DNA from: a virus
Length of the DNA stretch: 64,000 nt
Direction: 5' to 3' (one strand)
Virus record (IMG/VR): IMGVR_UViG_3300037245_000888
Span: 47,833 to 111,832 of that record
Part shown: positions 4,388 to 58,429 of the stretch, in pieces
Numbering within the stretch: position 1 is the first letter of the stretch
Layout: every line of letters begins with the position of its first letter
The notes under the pieces: model-generated
What the model was told of the DNA's origin: nothing
What the model saw: only the letters and a program-made list of their open reading frames with translations
Database searches by the model: none
Position numbers and translations under genes: made by a program

Positions 4388-7288
4388 ATGAACACGAAAA
4401 TCACAAATAACATTAAAATATCACAAATCAAAAATACAAAAGTATGTGCATTTAAAGGCTTCATGTCAACATTCAACGTGAGAGGTGGGTCTACCCCATT
4501 CCTCCACCTCTTATCTCTACATAAGAAATTTATAAGAGAACATGATAATATGACTGTTATAGAAGAATTCTTTGATGAAAATGTAGATGATTCGTACTTT
4601 CATTCTACTGTGGCCTTAGATATCGAGAAGAACTTATTCACTAAAAATTTAACTAGAATGTACGACTATTTCAAGTCTAATAACGCTACTATAATAGATT
4701 CTAAAGGTGGCTCATTCGATTACAATCACAATGGACAAACTATAGAAACTAAATATGATATGATTATTGAATATCCAGATAGAATTGAAGTTGTTAAAAT
4801 TGCTAACACTATTCCTAAGCTGTCATATAACGCTAAATCAGAGAAAAACTTACCAAGCAACAATCTAGAATTGTTCTTACTATCTGAGGGTGGTAAGAGT
4901 GCCTTTAACAGTGGTGGAACGTTGTTTGATAACATTAGTCTAGGGATTACAGATAAGCCTGTATATGGGTCTTTTTACCACCTACAGGGTAAGGCTGACA
5001 AGGATTCAGATAAGAAAAGTAAAATAGTTAAAAATTGTTATCAGATGTGGTTGAAAGGTGATTTCAAAGGTATTCAACATGAATTAAATGAGTTACAAGA
5101 ACTATATTATTATTATCATGAATTAGGTAAGAATGGAAAAGCAAAACCCTTTATGACTAAAATTAATAAAATTAACTCAATCCTAAAGTTTGATCACAAT
5201 CATGGTAATCACATTATCTCTGAAGTAAAGTTTGATAAATATAATATTCTATCTGAATTAGATGATATATTATCTGTTGAGTTAAATATGGATAGTGATA
5301 AATGTTCAGGAACCCATTGTACTATGTGTCCAAGTAAAGTATTATGTGACGCAAAGAAGTATACTCATATCGACTTAGAAGAGATAGTTGATGAAATTGA
5401 GGATGCTGATGATTGGACTAAGCTGCTTGATGATAATTATGAGTTAATAGAGAAGGTTGAGATTAAACCAACTAATCAGCAACAAGCAGTGATAGATACC
5501 AAAGAAGGATTTATTAGAGTTAACTCAGCATGTGGAACAGGTAAGTCTGAAACTACAGCTCAGAGATTTAAATCATTAATTCAAGATGGAGTTGAGTCAA
5601 ATAAAATACTTGGAATCACATTCACAAACAAAGGTGGACAGGAGTTAAGAGATAGAGTTTCAAAGAGAGCTAACGTTGATAAAAATGATCTTGAGATTTA
5701 TACATTTAACTCACTAGGCTCTCATATATTAAATAATGAGTTTGAATTATTAGGATTCACAAAAGAACCAACTATCGTAGATAATATCACGAAAGTAGAA
5801 ACTATGTTATCTATATTAAGAAATCCAAAGTACTATAGTATTGATTGGTTAAATATGAAATTACCATTACTATCTATGATCAATGCTAAAGGTGCAGTTT
5901 ATGAATTATTTGCTGCATTCAGCAAGAAGAAAACATTTGATACGTTTGGTGATTACGATAAAGAGCAACTGGAAATTATTCAAGAAATGTTCGATGAATA
6001 TAATAAAGCCGTTTGGAGTAAAGATAAAATTGACTATCAAGACCAAATATTATTAGTTAATGAATTATTCGAAAACCATCCACAGCTTATTGAGAAATAT
6101 GGATTTACACACATTATGACTGATGAGTTTCAAGATACTAATAAAATGCAAGTATACTTGCTTAATCAATTATCAACATACACAGAGTTTGTATCAATGA
6201 TGAATGTAGGTGACGCATCTCAAAGTATATACAGTTTTGCTGGATCCTCACAAGAATATATGTTAAACTTCGAAGCATATTTTGGAGAGTTCACAGATTT
6301 ATCAATGACAACTAATTTCAGATCAACAACGCAAATTTGCGATTTTGCCAATAAATTGGATAGATTAAATACTATCAGAATAGATAAAACAATGACATCA
6401 TTCAAAGGAAATGGAGAAGAAGTAGAATTACTCTCATACGATACCCTAGAAGACGAATATAGGGACGTAGCGAACCTTATTAAGTTTTCTGATACTAACT
6501 ATCAAGACACTGCTATACTGGCAAGAACGAAGGCTGAGCTGCTTAAAATGCAACGTGTGTTAAGTGATAATAATATACCTAGTATAATTGATGTCACTGA
6601 AAGAAATATAGACAATCATACTGTTAGGCTTGCTATTAATTTAGCTCAGTATTTAAACAACCCAAAAGAGAATCAATATTTGTTAGATCACATTTCATAT
6701 TTAAATCCAGAAGTGTCCAGTGATGATGAGTTAAATAATCTTATGGATAGTGTTGGTAAAACATTAACAGATGTAATTAACAATATTATCACTGAAGAAG
6801 AAAGACTAGAAGAAGGTTTGGATGCTAATGAGTCTATTGAATTAACTAGATTAGAATTATATTTAGATTTAGTTAGACCATTAAGAGACTCTGATGAAGT
6901 ATGTGACAAGTTTATTGAAGGTGTATTAAATAGTAGAACATTCATATCAATATCTGATTTATCTTCTTATTTAAAGAAACATGTAGATTATAATGATGCT
7001 GGACAAGTTGAGAAAGATGAAAGAAAATGGAAAGCTGTTAAACTTACAACTCTTCATTCTAGTAAGGGACAAGAATTTAATACTACTTTCGTTCTCCTTG
7101 ACAAAATGAAATATGATCACAAAATGTCACTAAAGGATTTGGAGGAAGAGAGGAGATTACTCTTTGTTGGCTGTACTAGGTCAAAGGATAAGTTGTACAT
7201 CATGTATAACAAGAATATGGATAAGAAACGTGGAGCTGGCAAGTATTGCTTGTTTGCTGATGAAGTTGCTATGATATTACAAGATTAA
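4388..7288 (+). CDS. UvrD/PcrA-family helicase with N-terminal PD-(D/E)XK-like, Cys-rich domain
   Basis: Motifs SACGTGKS, ITFTNKG, TDEFQDTN, VGDASQSIYSF, NFRS, TLHSSKGQEF, EERRLLFVGCTR. The N-terminal 330 aa has one early Cys and CSGTHCTMCPSKVLC. Confidence 0.88.
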   Translation: MNTKITNNIKISQIKNTKVCAFKGFMSTFNVRGGSTPFLHLLSLHKKFIREHDNMTVIEEFFDENVDDSYFHSTVALDIEKNLFTKNLTRMYDYFKSNNATIIDSKGGSFDYNHNGQTIETKYDMIIEYPDRIEVVKIANTIPKLSYNAKSEKNLPSNNLELFLLSEGGKSAFNSGGTLFDNISLGITDKPVYGSFYHLQGKADKDSDKKSKIVKNCYQMWLKGDFKGIQHELNELQELYYYYHELGKNGKAKPFMTKINKINSILKFDHNHGNHIISEVKFDKYNILSELDDILSVELNMDSDKCSGTHCTMCPSKVLCDAKKYTHIDLEEIVDEIEDADDWTKLLDDNYELIEKVEIKPTNQQQAVIDTKEGFIRVNSACGTGKSETTAQRFKSLIQDGVESNKILGITFTNKGGQELRDRVSKRANVDKNDLEIYTFNSLGSHILNNEFELLGFTKEPTIVDNITKVETMLSILRNPKYYSIDWLNMKLPLLSMINAKGAVYELFAAFSKKKTFDTFGDYDKEQLEIIQEMFDEYNKAVWSKDKIDYQDQILLVNELFENHPQLIEKYGFTHIMTDEFQDTNKMQVYLLNQLSTYTEFVSMMNVGDASQSIYSFAGSSQEYMLNFEAYFGEFTDLSMTTNFRSTTQICDFANKLDRLNTIRIDKTMTSFKGNGEEVELLSYDTLEDEYRDVANLIKFSDTNYQDTAILARTKAELLKMQRVLSDNNIPSIIDVTERNIDNHTVRLAINLAQYLNNPKENQYLLDHISYLNPEVSSDDELNNLMDSVGKTLTDVINNIITEEERLEEGLDANESIELTRLELYLDLVRPLRDSDEVCDKFIEGVLNSRTFISISDLSSYLKKHVDYNDAGQVEKDERKWKAVKLTTLHSSKGQEFNTTFVLLDKMKYDHKMSLKDLEEERRLLFVGCTRSKDKLYIMYNKNMDKKRGAGKYCLFADEVAMILQD

Positions 7289-17967: not shown

Positions 17968-19839
17968 TTACACCAAAGAAATCTCGTGCTCAATACCATC
18001 ACCACTTTGAAAATATAACTTATTATCCGCTTTAGTGTAAACTCTACCAAAGTTAGGAATTGCTGTAGGTGTTGTAGTCTCCTCTAAAATTATATTATTA
18101 ACAGTAGGTTCATCAGTAAATTCCAAAGCTGTTTCACCAGTATTAACTTGAGCTATTTTAAAAGCTTCACCTACATAATCAGCAGGAGTATCACTTAACC
18201 CTAAAAATGTTGTAATCCCACTTCCACCAACTCCTGAGCCAGCAGTATTATTAGGGACAAAACCTCTGAGATCTTTATAACCCACAACTGTTCCGTTGTA
18301 TTCAAATTGACCACCGTTCAATTTGAATACAAATAATCCTATTAAGAATCCAACACCCTGAAAATCACTAGGTATTGTATATACATTTTTACTATCTTTA
18401 TCATTTAATGCATCTTTCTCTTTACCATAATTACCTCTAGGTAGGTTACACATAATATGAGACATTTCACCTGACTTATTCGCTATTCCCCATACTACTA
18501 ATCCAAACCACTTTCCGTTTAAGGAATCACCTAATGCATCAACTGTTATATCATTTAAATTAGTTGTTGATCTAAAAGGTGTGACAGGATCATTTACAAC
18601 ATGTATATCAGCACCTGTACTCATACTAAGTGCTGGGAAAGTTTGTTTATGCATTTGATATACTTGACCTGATGTTACATCTACATATACATTATTTGGA
18701 GTGCCAAGTATAGTTCCTTCGGTTCCATTAGCCCAACTTGAATCCATCTGTCTTATTCTATCAGTGATATGAGATAAATGTCCTTGGAATGTAGTTGTAT
18801 TCTCTATCGCATCATTCCAATTCTGGTTTCTTAGTGCATCATCTGTTTGAGTGGTAGATGCACTTTGTAAGACTATAGTTGCAACTTTAGCATGTTCGTC
18901 TGTAGGGAACGATGCTGTGCTAACCGTTAATACTTTTGTATCTTTTGGTATATACACATAATTAGTTTGTGGTATAGCGTCAGTACCAGCAGTTAACGTG
19001 ATAGTTACATCTGGAGTTGCTGTAAATATGGTCAATCCATCACTAAACATTAATGTTAAGTCAGGATGTCCATTTGAAGGTGATAATGCTCCTGTAATAA
19101 TAGTTCCATTACTTGTAATTCTAAAGTCAAAAGTTTCTCTAATTGTTCCATTCCAAAAGTTTATTGTAGTATCTTCTGGTATACCATGTCGATCAACAAT
19201 TATTTCGCCTTCTAATGCATCTACTTTTGTAACCAATCCTATTAATATTTCATAGTTTGGAAACTCTGGTCTAGTATTTGTTAATCCACCTAATACATCT
19301 GCTGATAAATATACTGGCCCTTCAGATAATAATGAAGTATCAAAATCTCTTACCTTTCCAAATACATTTACAAATCCTTCTGCACCATTTAAAATTTCTG
19401 ATGTTGCTACGCCATAAGCGGTACTTATTGTTTCATGACTATCTGCCTTAGCTTTTGCTACATTCGGGAATCCAGTTGTGCTTGTTCCTATTGGATATAC
19501 TACCTCTCCAGAGCTTATTCCTATTCCTGAATTATTATGAACTTTGATCAAGTCTTCCTGTCCTATTTGTATGGCAGTAGTTCCTATTCCTGTTCCAATT
19601 TCAGCTGTTGAATCCTCTTCGTTCCAATGAAATCTACCTTTCTGATGTGGTACAGAGGTTCCTAGAGTTGTATCTAAATCTATGAAGTCTGTTTCTATTT
19701 CTTTATTTACGAATGTTTGAATTACATCTAATGTTATATTTTTACTTAAATTACCATTCTCAGTGTCAGTCATAACTACTTTATCCGTGCCTGTAGTTGA
19801 TGTTTTGGTTGGCAAATTATTAATTTTTATATCTGACAT
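17968..19839 (-). CDS. putative tail fibre / virion appendage protein
   Basis: N-terminal MSDIKINNLP type seen in fibre proteins; T/G-rich beta composition; late strand. Confidence 0.55.
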   Translation of the reverse strand: MSDIKINNLPTKTSTTGTDKVVMTDTENGNLSKNITLDVIQTFVNKEIETDFIDLDTTLGTSVPHQKGRFHWNEEDSTAEIGTGIGTTAIQIGQEDLIKVHNNSGIGISSGEVVYPIGTSTTGFPNVAKAKADSHETISTAYGVATSEILNGAEGFVNVFGKVRDFDTSLLSEGPVYLSADVLGGLTNTRPEFPNYEILIGLVTKVDALEGEIIVDRHGIPEDTTINFWNGTIRETFDFRITSNGTIITGALSPSNGHPDLTLMFSDGLTIFTATPDVTITLTAGTDAIPQTNYVYIPKDTKVLTVSTASFPTDEHAKVATIVLQSASTTQTDDALRNQNWNDAIENTTTFQGHLSHITDRIRQMDSSWANGTEGTILGTPNNVYVDVTSGQVYQMHKQTFPALSMSTGADIHVVNDPVTPFRSTTNLNDITVDALGDSLNGKWFGLVVWGIANKSGEMSHIMCNLPRGNYGKEKDALNDKDSKNVYTIPSDFQGVGFLIGLFVFKLNGGQFEYNGTVVGYKDLRGFVPNNTAGSGVGGSGITTFLGLSDTPADYVGEAFKIAQVNTGETALEFTDEPTVNNIILEETTTPTAIPNFGRVYTKADNKLYFQSGDGIEHEISLV

Positions 19840-19850
19840 TGCTTCACCTC

Positions 19851-22127
19851 CTAGTGATTAGCTGCTAGATTATCTCCGTCTTCAGTTAATGTTGCATCTC
19901 CACCCTCAGTCAATAAATGAGTAAGGGTATTAAAAAAATCCTCAGCTTTTACTAAACAATCTCCTGTCAATGAGGTTGAGAAGAATCCTATTTGTTTTGT
20001 TATTTTATTTATGAACATTTGGTCATTTGTAGTTTCTGTTACTGTTGCTATTTCAATTACTTTAGCTACTCCAGCAGCGTCATATAAAATGAACGTTGTA
20101 TCTGCTATAAATACTTCTGCGTAGAATTGATCAATTTTGAAATAGTTTGGTGATGCGAAATCACCTATGATTGGTGTTCCTGATATATCTGTTATTACGT
20201 AATTGTAAGTTGCTCTTTTAGTGTACGTTGGTACAGCCTTTCCACTTGGCGATTCATAGTTATATGCTACAACAAATGGATCTGTAGACACTTCTATTCC
20301 ATCGTTTATCATATTTATTTGTGTATATCGTGTGTCTATTAACGTGTCTACTGTTGTAATACATCCTTCTAAATAAGCAATAGACCCAGCGTCTTTTTCC
20401 CAATCTTCTTGTCCGCCTAACAATGGTTTGTAAGATAAACAAAATACATTCCAAGCCACTGTACCAGCAGTTACATCAGTAACTCCGGGGCCAAAATTAT
20501 TAAATAAATTATCTGCAAATCGAACCACTTGGACACCACCATGGCAAGTTGAACCTTGGTCACTGGCACTATCTCCATTGTTTCTTGCTACACAGTTGAA
20601 CTCAATTATGTTTTGATTGTCATGACTAAAACCATCACCTTGACCACTTGAAGCTATGCAATTTTGGAAAAATGAATCGAATCCAACAACATTGGTGCTA
20701 TAGCAACCAGCAGCACCAGCGTATTTAGCTGTACAATTCTTCATATAAGTGTTTGTAATGCTATTTAAACCACCTAAGTATCCACCTTCTATGTTTACAT
20801 TTTCAATATAGTTTCCAGCACCAGTTGTAAGTCTCAAAACATGTGTTCTTTTATAAGTTACTATATCACTATCTGGCACCCTTGAGTCAGGTGTATGAAC
20901 ATACATTTTACTTACACCATCCCAGAACCAACTACCTTGAGTACTATCCACCAAAGCAATTGAACCCACTTCTAAAAGTGTTGTATAATCTTGGTCTTGG
21001 TAAACTAATATACTCATATCGGTTACATTACTACATCTATCCATAGTAGATTCATAAACATTAGTAAATCCACCTGTCTTAGACCATGTTGCTGGTATTG
21101 CATTTGTTATTTTTACATTATCTCCGGTACCTATCATAGAAGTTCCAACACGCATGGTTGCACCCTGAAAAGCATCATCGTTGTTATAAGTACCGTTAGC
21201 AATATGCATCTCTACTAAGTCTACTTTTGTTCTTGCTTCTTTGATAGTTTTAAAAGCTGTTAAAGCTGTTAGTCCATCATTTGTATCCAGCCCTGTGACG
21301 ATATCAACATAATATTTTTTACCTACAAACTTATAATCAGATACATCGAAATCACTCGCATAACTACCGTCCGGCATTAAATAAATATCAATTGGTGGAA
21401 CCCAATTGTCGGTTAAATCAGTTGGCGGGACTACAATAATTCCTCCAGTTATGTCGCTATAATCTTTTTCTTGTAGGGTATCATCTAATATTCTAAAGTC
21501 TGCTTCAACATAATATGCGACAGAATTTACACCTTCGTTTGGTATAATTGCATCCTTTTCTATAGGATCAGTTGCTAGAGCATCCCAAAAATTATTAACG
21601 CCATTAGCAACGCTATAACCTTGTTGATTTGCAAGAGATTCTATATTATTTACTTCTACCCATGTAGGAGTTGCACTCAACTTAGATATTCTTCCATTTA
21701 CATGGTCAGCAATTGTATCTCCAGCACCCTCTTCAAATTTGAAGTAGTCACCTATTGATGTGATTTTTATATCTGCTACTTTTTTAGTATTTGGAAATGT
21801 AAAGAAACCACTTCCGTCAGTTGTTCCAGCAACATCTAATAATGTATCAGCATCCAAATATGTTAATGGCTCATTTAATAAACCAATATCCGCGGTTAAT
21901 ATGCCATCACCAAGTATATATTTTGCTTTTATTGATACTCTAGTTTCATCTCCAACTTGATCTTCCATGAAGCCATCAACTACCGTGTCGGCATATGAGA
22001 TGAGTCCACAGTCACGTACTAGTAAATCAAAAGCACTAAGACCTTTCTTAACATAATCAATACCAAATCTCATTGCTGCTCTGACTATTCCTATAAAGGT
22101 ATTCTTACCATTCTTTGAATAAATCAT
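19851..22127 (-). CDS. putative tailspike with right-handed beta-helix
   Basis: YYVD...G.D.NDG.....FKTI cap motif followed by N/G/C-rich beta-helix repeats such as DGFS. Confidence 0.6.
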   Translation of the reverse strand: MIYSKNGKNTFIGIVRAAMRFGIDYVKKGLSAFDLLVRDCGLISYADTVVDGFMEDQVGDETRVSIKAKYILGDGILTADIGLLNEPLTYLDADTLLDVAGTTDGSGFFTFPNTKKVADIKITSIGDYFKFEEGAGDTIADHVNGRISKLSATPTWVEVNNIESLANQQGYSVANGVNNFWDALATDPIEKDAIIPNEGVNSVAYYVEADFRILDDTLQEKDYSDITGGIIVVPPTDLTDNWVPPIDIYLMPDGSYASDFDVSDYKFVGKKYYVDIVTGLDTNDGLTALTAFKTIKEARTKVDLVEMHIANGTYNNDDAFQGATMRVGTSMIGTGDNVKITNAIPATWSKTGGFTNVYESTMDRCSNVTDMSILVYQDQDYTTLLEVGSIALVDSTQGSWFWDGVSKMYVHTPDSRVPDSDIVTYKRTHVLRLTTGAGNYIENVNIEGGYLGGLNSITNTYMKNCTAKYAGAAGCYSTNVVGFDSFFQNCIASSGQGDGFSHDNQNIIEFNCVARNNGDSASDQGSTCHGGVQVVRFADNLFNNFGPGVTDVTAGTVAWNVFCLSYKPLLGGQEDWEKDAGSIAYLEGCITTVDTLIDTRYTQINMINDGIEVSTDPFVVAYNYESPSGKAVPTYTKRATYNYVITDISGTPIIGDFASPNYFKIDQFYAEVFIADTTFILYDAAGVAKVIEIATVTETTNDQMFINKITKQIGFFSTSLTGDCLVKAEDFFNTLTHLLTEGGDATLTEDGDNLAANH

Positions 22128-23252: not shown

Positions 23253-23603
23253 TTATCCATTTTTAGTATTCATATCATCAGCTACTTCTTCTAATATGCT
23301 ATTATTTGAATCAGATAAATCTATTTCAATTCCCATTGATTTAGTTATATTTTTTAATCCCTTGTCTACAATAGTATTGACAAGTTTTGTTTTTTCAATT
23401 GTTGCTTTACCTGAATATAAGAATAATTCAAACATCCATCCCTTTGCAACCCAACTAAATATAAACTCAAGTTGTTGTATTTCATATCCTTTTATGAATA
23501 AGTATCCCATTGCAAGAATACACGATACAAAGATAATATTAACTATCCAAAGGAGTTTTTTACTAGTGGCATATTTCAATATTTTTTTAAATAATTTCTT
23601 CAT
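23253..23603 (-). CDS. putative holin (two TM)
   Basis: Two hydrophobic segments and a charged C-tail, adjacent to the endolysin. Confidence 0.5.
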   Translation of the reverse strand: MKKLFKKILKYATSKKLLWIVNIIFVSCILAMGYLFIKGYEIQQLEFIFSWVAKGWMFELFLYSGKATIEKTKLVNTIVDKGLKNITKSMGIEIDLSDSNNSILEEVADDMNTKNG

Positions 23604-23614
23604 TTTATTCTCCT

Positions 23615-25549
23615 TTAAAACTTAACCAATTGATAAAGTCTTCTCGTTGTTGTATAATACCAAACACCATCAACCTTCAATAATGTTGAATTTCCTGCAT
23701 CCCAGCTATTAATAAACCCGAGAACCATAGCCTTACCCATTCTGGTAGCTGTTTTATTACTCATATATGGGTGTACAGCAAAATACAATTCACCGTTAAG
23801 TTTAAAGTTATAAGGTCTTTTAGTTGCTCTAATTACATCTGCATATTTACCAGTGAATCCTGATGTAGCATATGCACTTGTTGATGGATATAATTCAAGT
23901 CCAGCATCAGCGAAAACTACACCATTGCCTAATTCCTTTGCGTTTAATACAGTTTTAACATCAAAGTGTTTACCACCTTTTGAAAATAGCGTAAAAGTAG
24001 GTTTATAATGCACCTGTCCGTCAAGTAATAATTTACCTTTTGTCATTGTAATTCCATACTTATACATTTTTCTTGCTGTAGGAGAATACCATTGATAACT
24101 TGAAGTAATTAAATTTGATTCAATATACCTATTACCAGCCTTATCTCCAATTGTAATATCTAATCTACTTGGATTAACCTTAACAACTATTGATGTATAT
24201 TTACTATTTTTAGGAATCTTCCAAGACTCTGTTCCATATTTACCATTGTGATATTTATGAAAATCTAATATAAGCTTTTTATTAATTTTAAATATATCAT
24301 CTTCATTTAGAGTATTTCCATGTGAAGATAGTCCAATTTCAGCTTTCAAATCTTTAATTCCTAATATAGTACCATTGCCTTTTTTCTTATCACATGAGAA
24401 TGCTCTATAATATCCAAGTGATTGTAATGCTCTCTGTAAGTATAATATTTGACTAGATTTGAATGAACTGGTTTTATTATAGTTGATTACACCCTTATAA
24501 ACTAATTGTGGAATAGCTTTGTTATATAGTAGTACCTCAGACTTCACCACAGCCTCACCACTGTCATCAAATGGTTCACTGGTAATAACTGTTGGCTCAT
24601 CAATAACTACTGTCTGAGAGGCTATTAGAGCTGTATTAATAGCTGTAGCAATATTCTCTGTAATTTTATTATTATACCAAATATTTAATGGTTTACAGAA
24701 ATTATATAATGCTGTTGAAAGACCATTACCATAAGATTTATCTAATCCATTTACATCAAATCCTAATTGAGTTAATGCTTTCTGAACTTCTAATACATCA
24801 TCAGAAACTTCACCTTTTAATATATCTCTTCCAACATACATATATAAAACTTTAATAGTATAAGGCTCATATGGGTCAATAAAATCTTTAATATCATCAA
24901 TTGTTTTCTTTTCTAAGTCAGTAAATTTCTCACCTGACATTTTAATTTTAATGTTGATTCTTTCTCCTGTCATATTTTCTCCTTTTTTAGATCCTTTTTT
25001 AATCTCATATAAACTTTTAACATCTTGTAAAAATACATTCCACCTACTATAATCCACTTTATTATATTCTGGACAATAATATTTAGGACAATCTTTACCT
25101 GATATAATCCCATGATTTGTTACTTTATCTAATCCTAAATTATATTCAATTAATAAGTCAACTGTTCTTTCTACCATTATAAAATACACGATATCAGAAT
25201 AGTTTCCTTTCATGTTTATTGTTGGAACTTCAATTGAATATACAACAGAATTAGGGTAAGTGTCACCCATCATATTATATTTTTCTTTTGTGTATGTTTT
25301 GGAGCCTACACTATATGCCATTTCATTGTCTGGTATAACTTTCCAAACATCACCATTAGTATCAATTATTTCATGAGCTGATCCATAGCTTTTCTTACCA
25401 TATTTTCTTGATTCAAAGAAGTCTCTTACAGCGGATGCTCTTGCATTAATAACAGCCTCCCAATGAACACATATAAATTTAACCTCAGCTTTCTTCTGTG
25501 GCCTACTCCATTTATTAGGAGTTAAATATTTTTCTATTACTTTGTACAT
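23615..25549 (-). CDS. endolysin: Amidase_2 + peptidoglycan-binding repeats + NAGPA-like C-terminal domain
   Basis: Amidase motifs ICVHW, SAHEIID, SIE, NHG...KDCP. Two PG_binding_1-like segments (VQKALTQLGF, LQRALQSLGY). C-terminal INSWDAGNST. Confidence 0.82.
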   Translation of the reverse strand: MYKVIEKYLTPNKWSRPQKKAEVKFICVHWEAVINARASAVRDFFESRKYGKKSYGSAHEIIDTNGDVWKVIPDNEMAYSVGSKTYTKEKYNMMGDTYPNSVVYSIEVPTINMKGNYSDIVYFIMVERTVDLLIEYNLGLDKVTNHGIISGKDCPKYYCPEYNKVDYSRWNVFLQDVKSLYEIKKGSKKGENMTGERINIKIKMSGEKFTDLEKKTIDDIKDFIDPYEPYTIKVLYMYVGRDILKGEVSDDVLEVQKALTQLGFDVNGLDKSYGNGLSTALYNFCKPLNIWYNNKITENIATAINTALIASQTVVIDEPTVITSEPFDDSGEAVVKSEVLLYNKAIPQLVYKGVINYNKTSSFKSSQILYLQRALQSLGYYRAFSCDKKKGNGTILGIKDLKAEIGLSSHGNTLNEDDIFKINKKLILDFHKYHNGKYGTESWKIPKNSKYTSIVVKVNPSRLDITIGDKAGNRYIESNLITSSYQWYSPTARKMYKYGITMTKGKLLLDGQVHYKPTFTLFSKGGKHFDVKTVLNAKELGNGVVFADAGLELYPSTSAYATSGFTGKYADVIRATKRPYNFKLNGELYFAVHPYMSNKTATRMGKAMVLGFINSWDAGNSTLLKVDGVWYYTTTRRLYQLVKF

Positions 25550-25657
25550 ATTACCTCCTTTTACAATCCAATCTATTCAAAGCCATTGTAACATATTCAA
25601 TTAACAATGTAAAGAACATGTTGGCTATATTTTTCAATTTAATAAGAAAAGGGAATT

Positions 25658-26041
25658 TCACCCTAATCTATTTTTCTTTTTTCTTAATACTACTCCAGCA
25701 ATATATCCTAATGGAATAGCTAACCACCATATAATGAATGAGCTTATTAAGGCTAATCCGATTATTAGGATTGTTGATACAATAAAACATTGCCACATTT
25801 CTGGCATGTGTACACCCTTTCTACCTACTCTGGCCAATATAAAAAATAACATTGCTAAAATAGATTCAGGGACTACACCGAGCATAAATGCTATACTCAT
25901 AATGAATGTTGTCTCGTAAACTTGGAACATTGACATATCAATAAACATTGCCAGATATTTAGTATCCTCTGGCATATTATGTTTATCACATATTTTCTTT
26001 GCTAATTTGTAGTAAATTGTGTTCTTTCTGCTTTTACTCAT
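25658..26041 (-). CDS. agrB: AgrB-like peptide-cyclising membrane protease (short, 127 aa)
   Basis: R-x4-G-x-H-x6-C (ARVGRKGVHMPEMWQC) with the AgrB His/Cys spacing, in a 4-TM protein. Confidence 0.8.
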   Translation of the reverse strand: MSKSRKNTIYYKLAKKICDKHNMPEDTKYLAMFIDMSMFQVYETTFIMSIAFMLGVVPESILAMLFFILARVGRKGVHMPEMWQCFIVSTILIIGLALISSFIIWWLAIPLGYIAGVVLRKKKNRLG

Positions 26042-26135
26042 AATCTGATAAATCTGTTTCTCCGACTATCCAAAAACATCCAGTTTTACTTGTTAGTCCT
26101 AATAGTCTCTTAATAAGTTCCATTAATTTTTTCAT
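26034..26135 (-). CDS. agrD: AgrD-like autoinducing-peptide precursor, 33 aa (not in ORF track)
   Basis: GGAGG RBS. Sequence MKKLMELIKRLLGLTSKTG-CFWIV-GETDLSDYE shows an amphipathic leader, a Cys-x4 ring and an acidic tail. Stop overlaps the agrB start. Confidence 0.8.
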   Translation of the reverse strand: MKKLMELIKRLLGLTSKTGCFWIVGETDLSDYE

Positions 26136-26592
26136 ACTTTCCTCCAAGTCTCATATAGGTTATATAACAAATCATATATTGAAATAGTCTAACAGGAGTA
26201 TAAAATATTATAGTGGAATATATACTTTCTTTTACTGGCGATATATCACTGCCAAGAATATATAGAATCGGCACATATATTATAAACTCCATGACTCCAA
26301 CAATCACTATGGCTATAGCTGTATTTAAAAATACTTTTAGTGCTTTTTCTTTGTTTACTTTGCTTAGGAAAGATATTGTTAATCCGGCCAATGCTAGATA
26401 GACTAATCTATTTAATATGCTATCACTACCAAATGGTAATAATATTAGCCCTAACACAGAACATATTAATATTGATATGATTGTGTATTTAGTCTTAATA
26501 TTTATCTTTGAAAACATTAATGTCATCAATACTACAAATGTTGCTTCAAAGATTTGTATACCGATAAAGTCTGTTAACCAGATGTAATTCAT
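26110..26592 (-). CDS. AgrC/VirS-like membrane sensor domain lacking kinase domain
   Basis: About 5 TM helices with intramembrane Glu (IFEA, VMEF). Overlaps agrD. No H-box or HATPase domain. Confidence 0.55.
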   Translation of the reverse strand: MNYIWLTDFIGIQIFEATFVVLMTLMFSKINIKTKYTIISILICSVLGLILLPFGSDSILNRLVYLALAGLTISFLSKVNKEKALKVFLNTAIAIVIVGVMEFIIYVPILYILGSDISPVKESIYSTIIFYTPVRLFQYMICYITYMRLGGKYEKINGTY

Positions 26593-27146
26593 AAAATCAG
26601 CTCCTTTAACATAATTAATATATCAAAGAAAGTTTTGCCACCTGATGTAAAAAACGAGAATATACTAACCAACAGTATAATTGACATTGTTACTATAAAT
26701 CTACTTATCCATTTGTTTAATTTACTTTTGTTGTAGAACAACCTAAATTGATCTCTCAGGTTATTATTCTTAATCTCAGCTTTCATACCTTGTATTTCAT
26801 TTAATATCAAACCTACTGATCTTTTCAAATCATCTTGTTCTCTACTTGATATAAATTGATTAGCTAAGACTTGAGCATTGTTTTCTAAATATTCTTCTAG
26901 CTTACTACTTATTTCATCGATAGAATTTGAAAGCTTACCAATAACATCTCTATCTTCTTGACGATTATTTTTCATCTCTTTGAGTTCAAATCGAATTTCA
27001 GTTATTTCAAGTTGCATTTTATGAAAAGTATCAACAGTTATCATACTTCCTTTTACATGGTCTACTTCCTGTCTTAATAATTTTATTTCATTTTCAAGAT
27101 TATTGATTTTGCTCTTGTTAGCCTCACCAATACATTTTTCAGTCAT
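26589..27146 (-). CDS. coiled-coil protein with C-terminal TM helix (holin-like or accessory)
   Basis: Long heptad region then a TM helix; ATGA overlap with the next gene. Confidence 0.5.
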   Translation of the reverse strand: MTEKCIGEANKSKINNLENEIKLLRQEVDHVKGSMITVDTFHKMQLEITEIRFELKEMKNNRQEDRDVIGKLSNSIDEISSKLEEYLENNAQVLANQFISSREQDDLKRSVGLILNEIQGMKAEIKNNNLRDQFRLFYNKSKLNKWISRFIVTMSIILLVSIFSFFTSGGKTFFDILIMLKELIL

Positions 27147-27165: not shown

Positions 27166-28233
27166 CTATATCTTCTCTATATCATAATTCAACTGAAGAG
27201 AGAAGTTTGGTGTTGTCACGCCTTCCCCATTTACAACTTTGATATATACATCGTCATCTTTGTCTATTAAACCGTCAATTATAACTAAATCTTTTGTTTC
27301 ATTTTTAGTTGGGAATAATTCTAAGTCAGTAAAAGTTGTATCAGATATAATATCAGAGCCTTCGATTAATTGTAAATTTGAAGTATTGACATCATCTATT
27401 CCAATACTATCTCCATTGCTGATTATTTTAATTCCTGTGATTGTACATGTGTAACCATCTGGTGCCGTGAATAATATTCTGTGTATTGCTATATCTGGTG
27501 GATTAGAGAATGATGGAATATCAAATACTATCATTTGATTTGTGCTGTCTTTTAATATTGCAATTAATGACACATATTCCTCTTTCATATCTGAAAATTC
27601 TGATGTGCGTGTTGACTCATTAGATTGTCTAGTTGACTCATTAATTGTTCTAACGCCCTCATTTACAGTTCTCTGAGTTTCTTTTTCCTGTCTAGTATCT
27701 TCACTAGCAATTCTAATATTCTCACTAGATACTCTTTCTGATTCTTGAAATACTCTATCAATTTCTGATGCTTCACGCTCATCTTCTTCAAAAGATATAT
27801 TAGATAATTTAGAAATCAAATCACTAACTACTGAAACTTTGTCTTCATTAGATAAAGTACATCCATTCATCATATCTGCCAATACAACAAATCTAAATAT
27901 ATTACTTGTGACAATTTGACCACTGGCAGTATATAATTTTATTAAACCTGTGACTGAACCACTTTTACTTAATGATTCATTACATAATTCATATGTTATT
28001 GAGTCTGAATTTAATATGCATAAACATGGTTCCATATAAGTTGCATCTTGGAACTTTAGAGTAATATAAACTTCGGATAGTTCAGAGTAATTAATCTCCG
28101 AACCATCTTCTCTGGTAACTGTAAAGACTAGCTTACCAACTCCATTGTCATTTTGACTGAAATATCTTCCAGTATTAATAGATCCAGATGAGTTTATTTT
28201 TAGCTGGATTGGTATAGTTTCTATTGAAATCAT
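27166..28233 (-). CDS. BppU-family baseplate upper / fibre protein
   Basis: N-terminal FSQND...F...V BppU-like domain and E-x-x-R heptad repeats. Confidence 0.65.
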   Translation of the reverse strand: MISIETIPIQLKINSSGSINTGRYFSQNDNGVGKLVFTVTREDGSEINYSELSEVYITLKFQDATYMEPCLCILNSDSITYELCNESLSKSGSVTGLIKLYTASGQIVTSNIFRFVVLADMMNGCTLSNEDKVSVVSDLISKLSNISFEEDEREASEIDRVFQESERVSSENIRIASEDTRQEKETQRTVNEGVRTINESTRQSNESTRTSEFSDMKEEYVSLIAILKDSTNQMIVFDIPSFSNPPDIAIHRILFTAPDGYTCTITGIKIISNGDSIGIDDVNTSNLQLIEGSDIISDTTFTDLELFPTKNETKDLVIIDGLIDKDDDVYIKVVNGEGVTTPNFSLQLNYDIEKI

Positions 28234-30174: not shown

Positions 30175-31308
30175 TTATAAGTCAATATCGAATGTGTCAA
30201 CAACTGTTAGTGACATTGGACTGTTTGTGAGTGGCATCGTAATTCTATCTAATAAAATCCTTTTACCATTCGCATCCTGTCTTGAGTCTGTAGCTGTCAC
30301 AACGTGATCTACATCTAAGTGAGGTAAAATCATAGATGTGATATTACCTTGAGTTAGAACATTAGTTTTTCTTTTTAGTTCGTAAATACCTCTTTGCTCA
30401 CAAAGGGCAACTGAATATATAATGCTATCTTTGACTATTTCTAATATTTCTATACCTAAATTTCCAATACTTGTATCAGAAAGTAGGTCGTTATTTTGAA
30501 CATTTTTTCTAACTGTAACTCCTGAAATATTATCACCAATTACAGTTATAGAATTCACAACTTCATCTAAATTATATTGAGTATTTCCAGATACATAATT
30601 TGTTTCATCTTCAGAATCAGCGTCAAAGTCCCAAATCGATCCCTTCGAGGAGTCCTTAGAATCTTTTTCAAAAACAAGACTGCCTCCAGTATTATAGTAT
30701 ACATTGCATGAAAATGCTTGTGCAAGTTCAATTAAAATCTCTCCAAGATTTGAACCTTCCTCTTTTACAATCTGATAAGGTATATTCTCTGAATCAATAG
30801 TTGTATCTATTATAACATCACGAGGATCTTGTGATATTGACATCACTGTTCTAATTGCTGTTCCAAGTGTCGTTGATGATGGGATTACTAACGTAAAGTC
30901 AATTTTGCCAGCCAAGCTACCATTGAGCAATGAGAACTTATCTTGCATTGAAACTTTAACTGAATTGTCTGGATTCACGACTGGTTTGTCATAGACAAAC
31001 GTGCCCTGTTTTATGAAATATTCCTCTCCATTTATCAGGTAACCGAGTGATAATCTACCCTTTTGTGCCACCCATATTCCAGAATCTAAACTAGGGAAGA
31101 ATTCATTCAATGTATTATCAAACGAAATGTCCAAAGTTCTCCTAACTCCATTACCATTAGATATATTTAAACTTCCTTCTAATCTTAATTTTGAAGTAAT
31201 TTCTCTTAAAGGAGTTTCATCTTCTTTTCTCAACATTTCAAACTTTACAAGGGGTTGTCTTATTCTGTTGTTTTTTACAAAGTCTAAATAATCTTGAAAA
31301 CTAATCAT
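30175..31308 (-). CDS. baseplate hub / Tal-like tail protein
   Basis: VRRTLDI, QDKFSLL-G, YYNTGG-LVF and LPHLDV pattern of hub proteins; position in the tail operon. Confidence 0.6.
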   Translation of the reverse strand: MISFQDYLDFVKNNRIRQPLVKFEMLRKEDETPLREITSKLRLEGSLNISNGNGVRRTLDISFDNTLNEFFPSLDSGIWVAQKGRLSLGYLINGEEYFIKQGTFVYDKPVVNPDNSVKVSMQDKFSLLNGSLAGKIDFTLVIPSSTTLGTAIRTVMSISQDPRDVIIDTTIDSENIPYQIVKEEGSNLGEILIELAQAFSCNVYYNTGGSLVFEKDSKDSSKGSIWDFDADSEDETNYVSGNTQYNLDEVVNSITVIGDNISGVTVRKNVQNNDLLSDTSIGNLGIEILEIVKDSIIYSVALCEQRGIYELKRKTNVLTQGNITSMILPHLDVDHVVTATDSRQDANGKRILLDRITMPLTNSPMSLTVVDTFDIDL

Positions 31309-32461
31309 TTGAGATTACCTCCTTTATTACTTTTTCTAGGTCTGGGATATCATAAAAACATTCAGTATATCCAGCAAATTTTATTTTTGGTGTTGACTTA
31401 AAATCGTTGTACGCTCTTAGCAAGTGACGTTCTAGATCCCACATTAAAGCTCCATTCTGAGATTCAATAATCCTTACTTCTTTATAAAAATATGGCAAAC
31501 TTTTAGTTTTTATTTTATTGCTATGATATCTTGCTTTTATTGTAGTATGAGTTTTACCTATTTTATAAAAGGTTTCTCCAGTCAACTCATCATAACATTT
31601 TATTATATAAACTTTAAATGTTTTGCTTTCATTAGATTTTTCTTTTCCTCTTATCCATTTTGTTTTTGTCCACCCTGTATTTTCCAGTGCACATCTAGGG
31701 CATCCATATCCGCTGTATAAATCTTGGTAAGTAGGATTCCATTCATGTCCGCATATGTCACATTCACAATCTAGTTTAGAGTAGGCGTTGATATATTCTT
31801 TTGATTTTATTATTATTGTAGGAGATGTTTTATAAATAGTGTCTTTAACTTCTTTTAGTGTAAGATTCAATGTTCCAGCACACTTTCTGCACCCGTGCCC
31901 AGCTTTTAATGAACGGGCTACAGTCACCCAAACATGTCCATCAATTAGACATTTTACTTCAAACCCATTTCTACCATCAGTGGTTCTTGCTACCCTTAAA
32001 ATTTCAATACCATTGTTAATTAATAGCATATCTCGCCTAATGTCATCTATGTTTACTGGTAGATTTCCAGCGCAACTCGGACAGCCGGCACCAGATTTTA
32101 ACGTATCCCATATTGGATTCCAATCATAATTACATATTAAGCACGTGCAATCCAATGGCTTATCTGAACCCATGTATTCTTTTGAGTTTATTTTGATAGT
32201 TGAGCTTATATTTTTTAATTCTTCTTTTATTCCTTTTAACGTTCTTCTAGCATTTAATCCACCTTGTTTTTGTCCACACAATTGACATCCAGCCCCTTGT
32301 TGAAACCTATTCCATCTTTGCTTAAATGGCTTATTGCATATTTTACAAAAACAATCTAGATCTTTTATCGCTCCAATATATTCTTTAGACAAAACAGATA
32401 CACTTGGAAAATGTATAGCAAGATATGCCACTATTTCTTCTAAAGTTTTCTTTCTCGCCAT
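31301..32461 (-). CDS. free-standing homing-endonuclease-like protein (Zn-ribbon repeats + GIY-YIG/T5orf172-like domain)
   Basis: Four C-x-IC...W...GCPxC repeats. C-terminal VYIIKC...FYKIGKT...R...LE...GYTECF. Confidence 0.75.
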   Translation of the reverse strand: MARKKTLEEIVAYLAIHFPSVSVLSKEYIGAIKDLDCFCKICNKPFKQRWNRFQQGAGCQLCGQKQGGLNARRTLKGIKEELKNISSTIKINSKEYMGSDKPLDCTCLICNYDWNPIWDTLKSGAGCPSCAGNLPVNIDDIRRDMLLINNGIEILRVARTTDGRNGFEVKCLIDGHVWVTVARSLKAGHGCRKCAGTLNLTLKEVKDTIYKTSPTIIIKSKEYINAYSKLDCECDICGHEWNPTYQDLYSGYGCPRCALENTGWTKTKWIRGKEKSNESKTFKVYIIKCYDELTGETFYKIGKTHTTIKARYHSNKIKTKSLPYFYKEVRIIESQNGALMWDLERHLLRAYNDFKSTPKIKFAGYTECFYDIPDLEKVIKEVISND

Positions 32462-34409: not shown

Positions 34410-37400
34410 CTAAAATTGTTGTAATTTAGATTGACCAGTTGCATTATCTATTAGTCTTTCTAATGAGTCTTCGTTAGTTTGTACATTCATTGTATTAACT
34501 GTTGTTGTGCTTGTTGTAGTATCTCCACTACCTCCAACAGTTGCTCTATCTCCAATAGTAGTTGATGATTCAGTTGAACCACTTCTAATCGGAATAATTG
34601 GTTGGAATGTATTTCTTTGAATAGATTCTTCAACAGCTTTTATCTGATCTTCAAGAACTTCTACTTCTGCTTTCTGCACATTTAAAGTAGCTATCTTAGA
34701 ATTGTAATCAGAAATAAATCCATCTAAATTTGTAAGTCTACTTGTGTAAGATGTACTCTCAACTGTTTCCAATGTATCATTCAAAGTAGTTACTGATTCA
34801 ATTGTGATAATATCCCCAGCTTCTATCTTTTCAGATATATCATTTTGGAATGACTCTAATTCGCCAACTCTAGTATTATAAGATTCCTCTTCTATTCTAG
34901 CAGTTTCATTTAAAGCATCAATATCATTTTGTAGTTTGTCTTCTGCTGCTTGCATTGCTTGATCATTTCTAAAATCTAATATAACCTTTTCAGAATCAGC
35001 TATGTCTTTGTTTACGTCTTTTAATGCGTCAGTATCAACTACTTGAACGAATCCAACTTCAGCATCTTTAACTAGTCTTTTGTTCTTGTTTGCTAATATA
35101 TTAGATCTACGATCTTTAAGGTCTTGTAAATCAGATAATAAATCTTCTAATTTTACTTTATCTTTTAATGCATCATTGGCTTCTTTAAGAGCCTCTAGTT
35201 CAGCTTCTTTATCTCTTATAGCTGCGTCAGATGCTTTCTTAGTTGCTTTAAAGTTTTCTTCTTCTAAGTCAATTTTATCCTGTATAACACCATTAAGTAT
35301 TTCACCTAATTTAATTAACTCTTCCTCAGATTGCTCTACACCTAAATTAAGTCCATCTTTAACTATTTGATTAGTAGCATCAACTAAACCGAAAATACTA
35401 TTTGTTGTGTCTTCAATAGCTAAACTTAATCTGAAAGCTTCATCTATATAGGCATCATACTCTTTAGTTCCGGCTACAAGGGACTTAGCTTCTTCATCTA
35501 ATGCTAACTGTTGTTCAAGCAATAAGTCTCTTTGTTGAGCGTATAACGTGGTTAAACGACCATTTATAGCAATCCTATTATCCAAGTCAGTTGTTCTACT
35601 TAATAGTTTGTTTTGCTGATCAATTGCGAATTTGTTCTTATTTAATGAAAGTGTTAACTTGTCAACAGCTTCATATTCTTCCTTAGTTTTCTTCTCACGA
35701 GATTTCTTAATAGATTCTTCACGAGCTTTATCAACAGACTCTATTTGCCTTCTTTCATTTGCTAATAATACTAAATTGTTCTCAGCGTCTTTTATAGCTT
35801 TATTGGCCTGAGTAAGTAGAGTATTTTCACCTTGACCTTCACTTAAGAAGTCAATAGCTTTTCTAGAAGCAATAATTACTTTAGCTGTATTAATTTCAGC
35901 TTGAGCTAAGGTTTCTAATCTCTCTATTTCTTTCAGAGTATTTAATCTATTTTTTTCAACATATTCAGTGAATGCATCTTTAGCTAATCCAGTTTGTATA
36001 ATTGAAGCACCATAAGTTTCTATGAGAGCATCTAACATATCATCTGTTAAGAATCCATCTATTGTTAATTGTTCTAATGCATCAGATAAATTTTCATATT
36101 CCTCAGATGAATCAAGAGCACGCCTAACATCATTTAATGCTTGTTCTTGTTTTGTTAATGCAAATGTTTGAGCTTCTATGTCTTCAGTTGTTTTTAATAA
36201 TGCAAATCCATAACCTTGAGTATATTCTTTTTCAATTGCAATCAAGGCTTCTTCTATGATTAATAGACTTGCTTCATTGTCTTTATATAAAGCTGTTCCT
36301 TCTTGAAGGATATCAAGAGATTTTAATAACTCTAATTGATAACTTTTTAATGCTGTCTCTTGTTCTTTTAATGCTTCTTCATTATCCTTTAAACCTTTTA
36401 TTCTTTTGTTATCTTCTGTTGATCCAGTAAAGAATAAATCTTGATGAAGTGTTATATTTTCTTCAATAGCATCTCTAATTCTTTCATAAGATTCAGCTAT
36501 TTTATCATTACGATCACTAGAAGCATTCTCCTCTTCAATTCTCAAGAGTTCTTTTTCAGCTTCTATTGTCTTTAATAAAATTTGTAATCTATTTTCTTGT
36601 GCTTTAGTTCTTTCTTTGATTCCTCTTAAATCTAATAATTCACTATTCATAGATTTAATATTGTCTCTAAGTTCAGCAATTTTTATAGCTGACTCTTCTG
36701 ATGAATCTCCAAATAACTTAACCCCTTGACTGATAGCAGCAATAGTTAATGCTATACCAGCGAATATTGGATTTAAACCAAATGCAGCAATACTTAATGC
36801 AGTAACTAATCCAATAGCTATTGGTAATTTATTGATTAAGAATGTTAATCCAACAACAAATCCTTTTAATGCATCAACAATACCTTTAACTGCAACACTA
36901 CTACTAAGAGCAGTAAGTAATTGTCCCCATGCTTCTTTAAGTTGATTTGTTTTGCCTTTTAAACTATCTAAAAACTTTTCATTAGCTTCAGCAACTTCAC
37001 CTGTACTATTTAATGCATCTTTCAATGCAGATTCAGCAACATCAAAGTTTTCAAGTAAACCAATTAAAATATTCTTTTGTCGTTTACCCGCTAATTTTTC
37101 AAGTAATGATTCTCTTGTTAATTCATCTAAACCTTTATATATATCTGAGAAGTCTTGGAACACATCAAATATATTTCTGAATGATCCATCTGCTTCTTGT
37201 ATTTCAATTCCAACTCTAGCAAAGTCATCAGCTAATGAAGGTAATAGTTCACCAGCATCAGTAACTCCTCTTAATCGAGAGGCTATTGTTTTAAGAGCCG
37301 TACCAACTTTGGCAGGATCTTGGATTGATTCATTTGCAGAAGCTATTAATGCAGCAGATTGTTCTAATGATGCACCAGCAGTATTTAATGTATTTGCTGA

Positions 37401-38093
37401 TCTTAAGAATGCTTCACCAATACCTTCAAGATTGATTGCAGTAGTATTTGCTACTCTGAATAATACATCTAAAATTCTAGCTGAGTCTTCTGCTTCAAGT
37501 CGAAATGACTTCAGACCTGCGACTAGGAAAGTCGTAATCTTAGATAAGTCAGTCATACCAACGTTTGCAGCGGCTATGGCATTACCAGCTAGTGTCATTG
37601 ATTCCTGTATTGAGAAACCAGCTCTTGTAAACTCTGTAACGGCATCAATAACATCTTTCTTTAATGCTCCGAGTCCTAATGACATTTCATTTATTTGTGA
37701 ATTTACAACTGCTAATTCTGTGGCTGTTGCCTTAGATACAATTGCAAAGTTTGTAAAAGCTATATCTAGTTCGAACATTAATCCTAATGCTGATCTTATG
37801 GTTTTAGCTAAAGTAGCAATTACTAATGAAGCAACTCCAAGAGTCAACATTGATTTTATATTCTTTTTAAAGCTATTTGTTAATTGATTAAATAAACCAA
37901 TTTGTTTTTTAGTTTGTTTGTTCGATGTTGCTTGTCCTTTGTTAAATTTACCCTGTGTTTTAGTTTGCCTATCTATACTTTCTTTAAAGCTTTTCTCATA
38001 GCCCTTCTGCAGAGCGACTGCCTCTTTCTGACTTTTCCGTTGGTCATAAACTACAGCCACTTTTAAAACGAGTTTATTAACTTTTGCTGCCAT
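34410..38093 (-). CDS. tail tape measure protein (TP901 family)
   Basis: 1227 aa, helical; VGTALKTIASRL, FRNIFDVF and LAGKRQKN core; TM segments. Confidence 0.9.
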   Translation of the reverse strand: MAAKVNKLVLKVAVVYDQRKSQKEAVALQKGYEKSFKESIDRQTKTQGKFNKGQATSNKQTKKQIGLFNQLTNSFKKNIKSMLTLGVASLVIATLAKTIRSALGLMFELDIAFTNFAIVSKATATELAVVNSQINEMSLGLGALKKDVIDAVTEFTRAGFSIQESMTLAGNAIAAANVGMTDLSKITTFLVAGLKSFRLEAEDSARILDVLFRVANTTAINLEGIGEAFLRSANTLNTAGASLEQSAALIASANESIQDPAKVGTALKTIASRLRGVTDAGELLPSLADDFARVGIEIQEADGSFRNIFDVFQDFSDIYKGLDELTRESLLEKLAGKRQKNILIGLLENFDVAESALKDALNSTGEVAEANEKFLDSLKGKTNQLKEAWGQLLTALSSSVAVKGIVDALKGFVVGLTFLINKLPIAIGLVTALSIAAFGLNPIFAGIALTIAAISQGVKLFGDSSEESAIKIAELRDNIKSMNSELLDLRGIKERTKAQENRLQILLKTIEAEKELLRIEEENASSDRNDKIAESYERIRDAIEENITLHQDLFFTGSTEDNKRIKGLKDNEEALKEQETALKSYQLELLKSLDILQEGTALYKDNEASLLIIEEALIAIEKEYTQGYGFALLKTTEDIEAQTFALTKQEQALNDVRRALDSSEEYENLSDALEQLTIDGFLTDDMLDALIETYGASIIQTGLAKDAFTEYVEKNRLNTLKEIERLETLAQAEINTAKVIIASRKAIDFLSEGQGENTLLTQANKAIKDAENNLVLLANERRQIESVDKAREESIKKSREKKTKEEYEAVDKLTLSLNKNKFAIDQQNKLLSRTTDLDNRIAINGRLTTLYAQQRDLLLEQQLALDEEAKSLVAGTKEYDAYIDEAFRLSLAIEDTTNSIFGLVDATNQIVKDGLNLGVEQSEEELIKLGEILNGVIQDKIDLEEENFKATKKASDAAIRDKEAELEALKEANDALKDKVKLEDLLSDLQDLKDRRSNILANKNKRLVKDAEVGFVQVVDTDALKDVNKDIADSEKVILDFRNDQAMQAAEDKLQNDIDALNETARIEEESYNTRVGELESFQNDISEKIEAGDIITIESVTTLNDTLETVESTSYTSRLTNLDGFISDYNSKIATLNVQKAEVEVLEDQIKAVEESIQRNTFQPIIPIRSGSTESSTTIGDRATVGGSGDTTTSTTTVNTMNVQTNEDSLERLIDNATGQSKLQQF

Positions 38094-54858: not shown

Positions 54859-54933
54859 ATACTCTAATTTTTAACCAATAACATTTAAATATAAATACTA
54901 TTGATTAAATTTTAAAACAAAACAACACTGCCT

Positions 54934-55006
54934 ACACATCGACAAGACTTGAACTTGCAACCCTTCTGACTGAAGTCAGATACTCTACCAATTGAGCTAC
55001 GATGCT
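54934..55006 (-). tRNA. atypical tRNA / pseudo-tRNA with Lys-like body and 6-nt loop CUUCAG
   Basis: GCATCG/CGATGT acceptor, GCTC-AATTGGTA-GAGT D arm, TCTGA/TCAGA stem, GCAAG-TTCAAGT-CTTGT T arm. 1:72 mismatch and no CCA. Confidence 0.65.
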
Positions 55007-55039
55007 TCGGGTAACTTATGTGTTATTCTGTTAAAACTG

Positions 55040-58340: not shown

Positions 58341-58429
58341 TGGCGGACAGTGTAGGATTTGAACCCACGCATGTTTTTAGCATCTAACTGGTTAGCAACC
58401 AATCCTCTTAACCACTTGAGTAACTGTCC
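58341..58429 (-). tRNA. trnS: tRNA-Ser(GCT)
   Basis: GGACAGT/ACTGTCC acceptor, TT-GCT-AA loop, long variable arm, TTCAAAT T loop, G73 and encoded CCA. Confidence 0.93.

Follow-up and report, generated by a model that had tools for sequence, protein, structure and literature searches.

Communication between phages by means of peptides is established for linear peptides of the arbitrium type, which have cytoplasmic receptors. For cyclic peptides of the agr type, the C. difficile phage phiCDHM1 is, to our knowledge, the sole phage case to have been proposed. Here, we analyze an agr-like cassette of an uncultivated phage, located in a 64,000-nucleotide stretch of DNA (hereinafter, the window) that spans bases 47833-111832 of the 111,832-bp IMG/VR virus record IMGVR_UViG_3300037245_000888, a record with direct terminal repeats. 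The cassette consists of four overlapping minus-strand genes, at positions 25658-27146 of the window, which encode a 185-amino-acid (aa) coiled-coil protein with a single membrane helix, a five-helix membrane protein, a small AgrD-like peptide and an AgrB-like protein (Table 1). We tentatively favor the view, which we stop short of calling probable, that these genes form a phage-borne, kinase-free, self-contained "mini-agr" module, in which an AgrB core and its precursor are combined with an AgrC-like sensor and with the 185-aa anchor as a likely partner.

The four overlapping genes had been described, with the same coordinates and strand, in an earlier, sequence-only reading of this DNA, and the list of open reading frames (ORFs) bears out that arrangement. 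The overlaps amount to 4 nucleotides (nt; ATGA) between the genes for the 185-aa and 160-aa proteins, 26 nt between the latter gene and the peptide gene, and 8 nt between the peptide and AgrB-like genes.

The canonical agrBDCA system of Staphylococcus aureus and the clostridial agr systems share with this cassette an AgrB peptidase with the Arg/Gly/His/Cys residues, an adjoining precursor with the same tripartite layout and, judging by predicted fold, a polytopic membrane protein that resembles the sensor part of AgrC. Unlike those systems, the phage genome encodes no kinase with dimerization and histidine-phosphotransfer (DHp) and ATPase domains and no AgrA/LytTR protein; its AgrB consists of 127 aa instead of about 190-220 aa, with two helices and a conserved loop missing; agrD precedes agrB instead of following it; and the precursor has a 9-aa tail without proline and fails the AgrD profile. 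The sequence-only reading had noted that a kinase and a response regulator were missing from the window. This absence holds for the entire 111.8-kb record, in which the HATPase_c_5, HATPase_c, LytTR and Response_reg profiles found no match at an expectation value (E) of 1 or below; with neither the receiver nor LytTR matched, the phage encodes no AgrA-type output domain.

The agr3 cassette of phiCDHM1 (agrC-agrB-agrD; PMC3901668) is likewise phage-borne, lies beside an endolysin gene and includes no response regulator. In contrast to the cassette analyzed here, it encodes a full 453-aa AgrC with HATPase_c_5, a full-length AgrB (122.8 bits, profile positions 1-180) and a profile-positive AgrD, and it is convergent to the lysis genes, whereas the present cassette is co-oriented with them. 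In the literature searched, phiCDHM1 alone is discussed as an agr system (PMC3901668, PMC7790227).

The Brevibacillus phages Davies and Emery are kinase-less as well (no HATPase_c_5 in the whole records), with membrane-protein genes directly upstream of agrB and a small peptide gene beside it. Their order runs from two or one polytopic membrane-protein genes through AgrB (172 aa) and a 39-aa peptide to a 121-aa protein that weakly matches LytTR, and the set is located beside the integrase, whereas the cassette described here lies between tail and lysis genes, has the peptide before AgrB, includes no DNA-binding protein and encodes membrane proteins without detectable sequence relation to theirs. 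By annotation, Brevibacillus phage Abouo and the Paenibacillus phages Harrison and Paisley have similar agrB cassettes; in the literature searched, the AgrB of phages of this type appears only as a table entry (PMC5056774). A kinase-less phage agrBD is thus not unprecedented, and the uniqueness that the sequence-only reading implied was overstated, given the published genomes of Davies and Emery. What is new here, compared with the sets of that type, is the lack of any DNA-binding part, the reduction of AgrB to a bare core and the position within the late gene block.

The 121-aa protein of Davies (gp48, 5630-5995), encoded after the agrB/peptide pair, shows a weak, stand-alone LytTR match (E 0.007, profile positions 5-95 of 98), which suggests that it could be a receiver-less output of a kinase-less cassette.

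The chromosomal operon CPE1563-CPE1562-agrB-agrD of Clostridium perfringens (PMC2706048) resembles the phage cassette in that it has four genes, two of them uncharacterized in addition to agrB and agrD, and includes neither a kinase nor a regulator; the kinase that reads its signal has its gene elsewhere.

The AgrB-like core and its candidate precursor

The last gene of the cassette had been assigned to agrB on the strength of an R-x4-G-x-H-x6-C motif. Profile searches support this assignment: the Pfam AgrB family PF04647 matches the protein with E 4.6e-14 and 52.6 bits, against a curated cut-off of 23 bits (50.3 bits on the DNA). We aligned the core with 3 phage AgrBs and, separately, with 12 chromosomal AgrBs from Clostridia and Bacilli (196-221 aa). 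The four residues of the motif, R71, G76, H78 and C85, are the sole invariant columns in both alignments, so that the motif is evidently real. These residues correspond to R70, G75, H77 and C84 of S. aureus AgrB, which are reported to be required for proteolysis (PMC10196373). The AlphaFold2 model of the core, with a mean predicted local distance difference test (pLDDT) score of 84.8, consists of four helices, with both termini in the cytoplasm, H78 in a cytoplasmic loop and C85 where helix 3 begins. Its top two matches in BFVD are annotated AgrBs (201 and 226 aa) of "Phage sp. ctGns7" and "Siphoviridae sp. ctOSJ35". A sequence search of the PDB found no solved AgrB structure.

Compared with the full-length AgrB architecture (about 185-220 aa), the protein is short, ending before a near-invariant proline column, and the NCBIfam equivalog NF002210 scores it at 31.3 bits, the cut-off being 282. 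Both termini are basic, and the stop codon is followed by only 108 nt before the endolysin gene, and these hold no remains of an AgrB coding sequence. Together with the clean predicted topology, these features argue that the 127-aa protein is a stable short form and not the product of a fresh frameshift. In a scan of 399 Clostridia genomes, AgrB-core matches were detected in 42, at 21-39% identity, in open frames of 164-244 aa save three of 95 aa and one of 488 aa. The 95-aa frames (genome G348) were considered as mini AgrBs and rejected, being cut off at contig ends. None of five human-faecal "Bacteriophage sp." contigs with AgrB matches qualified as a mini cassette either: four carry AgrB and an AgrD-like ORF, three of these with a regulator and a kinase upstream, and the fifth ends at the AgrB match.

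The 33-aa peptide encoded immediately before AgrB consists of an amphipathic basic leader, a candidate ring (CFWIV) and a 9-aa acidic tail (GETDLSDYE), that is, the tripartite AgrD layout. Two acidic residues directly after the cut site of S. aureus AgrD are essential for its cleavage (PMC10196373). The start codon of the peptide gene is preceded, at a distance of 5 nt, by GGAGG. The agrB start overlaps the peptide stop, and the agrB gene lacks a ribosome-binding site of its own; its translation therefore probably depends on the peptide ORF. We surveyed all ATG-initiated ORFs of 25-60 aa in the six frames of the whole 111.8-kb genome. Among the 353 found, the combination of a basic leader, a cysteine followed by four hydrophobic residues and a short acidic tail occurs once, in this peptide.

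The five-helix protein and the 185-residue anchor

The protein for which the sequence-only reading had counted about five transmembrane segments is modeled with five long membrane helices; its N-terminus is predicted to lie outside, and its short cytoplasmic tail (GGK-H/Y-E) is conserved. An exhaustive phmmer search of 1.84 billion representatives yielded only four relatives, in which E16, E102, P133, R135 and the tail are conserved. All four are 161-164 aa long, which rules out a recently truncated agrC pseudogene, an outcome that the sequence-only reading had itself named as damaging to its proposal. Ending about 10 residues past helix 5, the protein has neither the AgrC-type DHp helix nor a GHKL ATPase. 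No Pfam, NCBIfam or PHROG family matches it.

Two signals came from the comparison of predicted structures. The best structural neighbor of the five-helix model in the Atlas, with a template modeling (TM) score of 0.75 over 146 of the 160 residues, is a 450-aa Bacillota cluster, 99% of which contains HATPase_c_5; two further HATPase_c_5 (AgrC-type kinase) clusters follow at 0.65 and 0.59. The predicted fold thus best matches the membrane sensor part of AgrC-type kinases, and the neighbors by language-model features are bacterial (Bacillota) clusters as well. Fold searches of the PDB returned generic helical bundles only (Foldseek E>1; best VIA Z 7.1), and neither a solved AgrC membrane domain nor a relative of the five-helix family was found there. 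We also considered, and rejected, the possibility that the five-helix protein is the other part of a split AgrB, for which the hhalign comparison with AgrB came back empty.

In BFVD, the five-helix model is matched best by two proteins, of 158 and 165 aa, from ctGns7 and ctOSJ35, the same two phages that supply the two best matches of the AgrB-core model. Such a coincidence is very unlikely to arise by chance and therefore indicates, at the level of modeled structures, that the five-helix fold and AgrB travel together in phages.

For the 185-aa protein, too, four relatives were found; they are 43-60% identical to it, and the membrane segment hardly varies among them. Invariance of this kind usually means contacts within the membrane. 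The protein belongs to no Pfam family, PADLOC returned coiled-coil noise only, and the XhlA profile PF10779 found no match at E<=10. Language-model neighbors in the Atlas, to be taken as leads only, comprise viral clusters, DUF7201 and XhlA (0.88). P0018, the closest relative of the 185-aa protein, and P0003, that of the five-helix protein, are both encoded on JGI contigs with a length of 2343 bp. The contig is probably one and the same, in which case the two genes are neighbors there too. Relatives of the N-terminal part of the endolysin reside on contigs of other sizes, an observation that is uninformative on synteny. Scans of IMG/VR, JGI metagenomes and GTDB genomes with the AgrB-core, five-helix and 185-aa families recovered no DNA of relatives, and neither the region nor the five-helix protein had a relative in the phage collection by blastn or tblastn. 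When the conserved membrane segment was searched for with a degenerate pattern, 15 loci matched, all of them by chance according to tblastn.

A possible kinase-free module and its rivals

If the four genes form a mini-agr module, the chemistry of the AgrB family suggests how it might start to work. The membrane-embedded AgrB core, with its Arg/Gly/His/Cys site facing the cytoplasm, would cut the 33-aa precursor after Val24 and, by analogy with known AgrBs, close a CFWIV thiolactone on Cys20, with the short acidic tail (GE..D) replacing the longer recognition tail of AgrD. The peptide would then exit the cell through export or at lysis. To go by its predicted fold and its co-occurrence with AgrB, the five-helix protein could be an AgrC-type sensor module that has lost its kinase or never had one, and its outer loops might bind the peptide. 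The remaining step is speculative: because the phage has no kinase and no DNA-binding partner, the signal would be passed only by protein-protein contact in the membrane, most likely to the co-conserved and translationally coupled 185-aa coiled-coil anchor. Candidates for the process under control would be lysis timing, superinfection or a host pathway. The presence of polytopic membrane-protein genes directly upstream of agrB in the kinase-less Davies and Emery is in line with such a module.

A module of this kind would be of interest in two respects. Its AgrC-like sensor comes with no kinase and no DNA-binding partner, and the signal, if it is read, would have to be relayed by a mechanism that has yet to be described for agr systems. 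The cassette may also present the smallest AgrB that still bears the catalytic site and, lacking as it does a loop that is needed for the formation of the autoinducing peptide (AIP) in S. aureus, offers a natural means to learn which segments of AgrB ring closure requires. All the parts are small, so a synthetic operon and a synthetic peptide would suffice as test material, with no need for phage culture.

Several observations weigh against this interpretation. The PF04647 match is restricted to profile positions 3-101 of 185, and the AgrB core ends after helix 4; the final two helices are missing, as is the near-invariant YAPxDT..P loop. Mutants of the S. aureus loop at K129-131 retain cleavage, but AIP formation is abolished (PMC10196373); because the corresponding loop is missing here, cyclization or release may fail. 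The tail of the peptide is short and devoid of proline. Neither TIGR04223 nor PF05931 matches the ORF (33 or 37 aa) at E<=10, whereas TIGR04223 readily detects both phage control AgrDs, those of phiCDHM1 (1e-11) and of Ruminococcus phage NatCom_29429 (6e-6). The profile search thus went against the sequence-only reading, and the peptide is, by its sequence, AgrD-like on paper yet outside the AgrD profile family. The likeness of the five-helix protein to AgrC comes solely from predicted structures of helical bundles, and profile comparison of its family with the AgrC of phiCDHM1, with AgrB and with the membrane proteins of Davies detected no similarity. For the AgrB core, no close relative came up in a word-based search among 5.8 billion proteins; related phages may therefore possess the pair of genes for the 185-aa and five-helix proteins but no agrDB. 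Finally, a good promoter-like site, TTTACA-17-TGnTACAAT, is present at 25613-25585, in the gap between the cassette and the endolysin gene, so that the lysis genes may have their own start.

The alternative that survives best, although we consider it rather unlikely, is that agrD and agrB constitute a signal-only "moron" whose peptide switches on, or jams, receptors of the AgrC type in the host population; export, leader removal or self-protection, rather than reception, would then be the task of the five-helix and 185-aa proteins. This has been published as a hypothesis for phiCDHM1, which is likewise devoid of a regulator (PMC3901668; PMC7790227), and the C. perfringens operon demonstrates that agrBD accompanied by two hypothetical genes works with a kinase encoded elsewhere (PMC2706048). 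It also suits a phage without an output domain of its own, and the tyrosine recombinase described below makes possible a lysogenic state, in which a signal would pay off. However, the marine sediment metagenome names no host and hence no cognate receptor, and the low identity to the AgrBs in the Clostridia scan shows that the core was not copied recently from a host system. Moreover, this alternative leaves unexplained why the five-helix protein has an AgrC-like fold and why it co-occurs with AgrB in two other phages.

It appears improbable that the cassette joins two unrelated units, namely, late or lysis membrane proteins (the 185-aa protein as an XhlA-like accessory and the five-helix protein as a holin or antiholin) and an agrD-agrB pair inserted separately at a usual site for accessory genes beside the lysis genes. 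Relatives were found for the 185-aa and five-helix families and none for the AgrB core, and language-model features (0.88-0.90, leads only) place the 185-aa protein near XhlA and coiled-coil membrane proteins of viruses. In phiCDHM1, the agr genes also adjoin the endolysin gene, on the opposite strand, an analogy that points to a common insertion site for accessory genes rather than to a functional link. Yet XhlA and holin profiles are unmatched, and the neighbors of the five-helix protein are bacterial by features and kinases by structure, not holins. All four genes overlap, leaving no room for a separate promoter; the guanine-plus-cytosine (GC) content of the cassette and its neighbors is 0.275-0.318, with no insertion signature; and two further phages combine the five-helix fold with AgrB.

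We deem it quite improbable that the cassette is a decaying remnant, with a truncated, inactive AgrB and a peptide that is no longer processed. The half-length profile match with the loss of the loop and two helices, the failure of the peptide against the AgrD profile and the low equivalog score would all fit decay. They are countered by the retention of all four catalytic-site residues, the confident model of the AgrB core, its basic and tidy C-terminus with no leftover AgrB sequence in the 108 nt that follow, and the intact translational coupling and strong ribosome-binding site. Hardly credible is a bacteriocin-like set, in which the processed peptide would be a weapon against competitors and the five-helix protein would confer immunity: bacteriocin loci do typically combine a small peptide with a processing enzyme in the membrane and a polytopic membrane protein, but bacteriocin and immunity families are unmatched, and we know of AgrB-made rings as signals, not as toxins.

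Relation to the lysis genes and gene neighborhood

The sequence-only reading had described the cassette as late-expressed and built into the lysis module, about 110 nt from the endolysin gene. The shared orientation and the distance (108 nt) hold up, but the candidate promoter in the gap separates the cassette from the lysis genes, and both late expression and membership of the lysis module are inferred from position. The agrB stop is followed by a weak hairpin and a T run, the fold of which is no better than that of shuffled sequences (z -0.29). Direct control of lysis timing is speculative; the position of the cassette is the one thing that speaks for it. A particular scheme of this kind, in which a late, diffusible cyclic peptide, read by a kinase-less AgrC-like sensor with a coiled-coil partner as a measure of the number of infected neighbors, would act directly on holin triggering, seems to us very improbable. 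If true, it would delay lysis in a density-dependent way purely through contacts between membrane proteins; it would be the diffusible equivalent of lysis inhibition in T4 and a branch of agr signaling that does without phosphorylation.

Table 1. Features of the cassette and its surroundings (window coordinates).
Feature	Position	Strand	Basis or remark
Holin-like protein, 136 aa, one N-terminal membrane helix	22776..23186	-	hydropathy
Holin-like membrane protein, 116 aa, charged C-terminal tail	23253..23603	-	hydropathy
Endolysin, 644 aa	23615..25549	-	Amidase_2 and PG_binding_1
Intergenic gap, 108 nt	25550..25657	-	promoter-like site and endolysin ribosome-binding site
AgrB catalytic core, 127 aa	25658..26041	-	Pfam AgrB PF04647 match
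AgrD-like precursor, 33 aa	26034..26135	-	ATG at 26135; ribosome-binding site and layout
Five-helix membrane protein, 160 aa	26110..26592	-	AlphaFold2 model, pLDDT 76.6
185-aa protein, long N-terminal cytoplasmic coiled coil, one C-terminal membrane helix (about residues 150-170)	26589..27146	-	hydropathy
BppU-type baseplate or tail-fiber protein	27166..28233	-	Pfam BppU_N, E 9e-9
Tape measure protein	34410-38093	-	

The late genes form a long run on the minus strand, from about 17.9 to 54.5 kb of the window, in which the cassette is located between tail-fiber and lysis genes, in the same orientation as the latter; the stop codon of the BppU-type gene lies 19 nt upstream of the cassette. The two genes that the sequence-only reading called holin-like do encode hydrophobic helices, but family searches, including Pfam, NCBIfam and PHROG, gave no match for either product.

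The phage genome, of about 112 kb, has a GC content of about 30%. A marine sediment metagenome is the only public run that holds the stretch and may be its source; no RNA data set was listed as containing it. The phage encodes a 308-aa tyrosine recombinase (Phage_integrase, E 4.7e-24; record positions 35594-36049), about 12 kb before the start of the window and about 38 kb from the cassette in the record, and may therefore be temperate or plasmid-like.

Other genes in the neighborhood also merit mention. The C-terminal half of the endolysin (23615-24500, minus strand; roughly the final 350 aa) has no counterpart among the Pfam and PHROG families and is possibly a new cell-wall-binding region. 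Two large proteins of 623 and 758 aa, encoded directly downstream of the lysis genes (17968-22127, minus strand), belong to no Pfam family at E<=0.01. Three transfer RNA (tRNA) genes were predicted by ARAGORN, all on the minus strand, at 54933-55007, 58341-58429 and 58578-58652; one has an anticodon that the program could not assign, and the others are tRNA-Ser(GCT) and tRNA-His(GTG). In the tail gene block, a 386-aa protein (31301-32461, minus strand) shows a match to a CapR-homology/treble-clef zinc finger.

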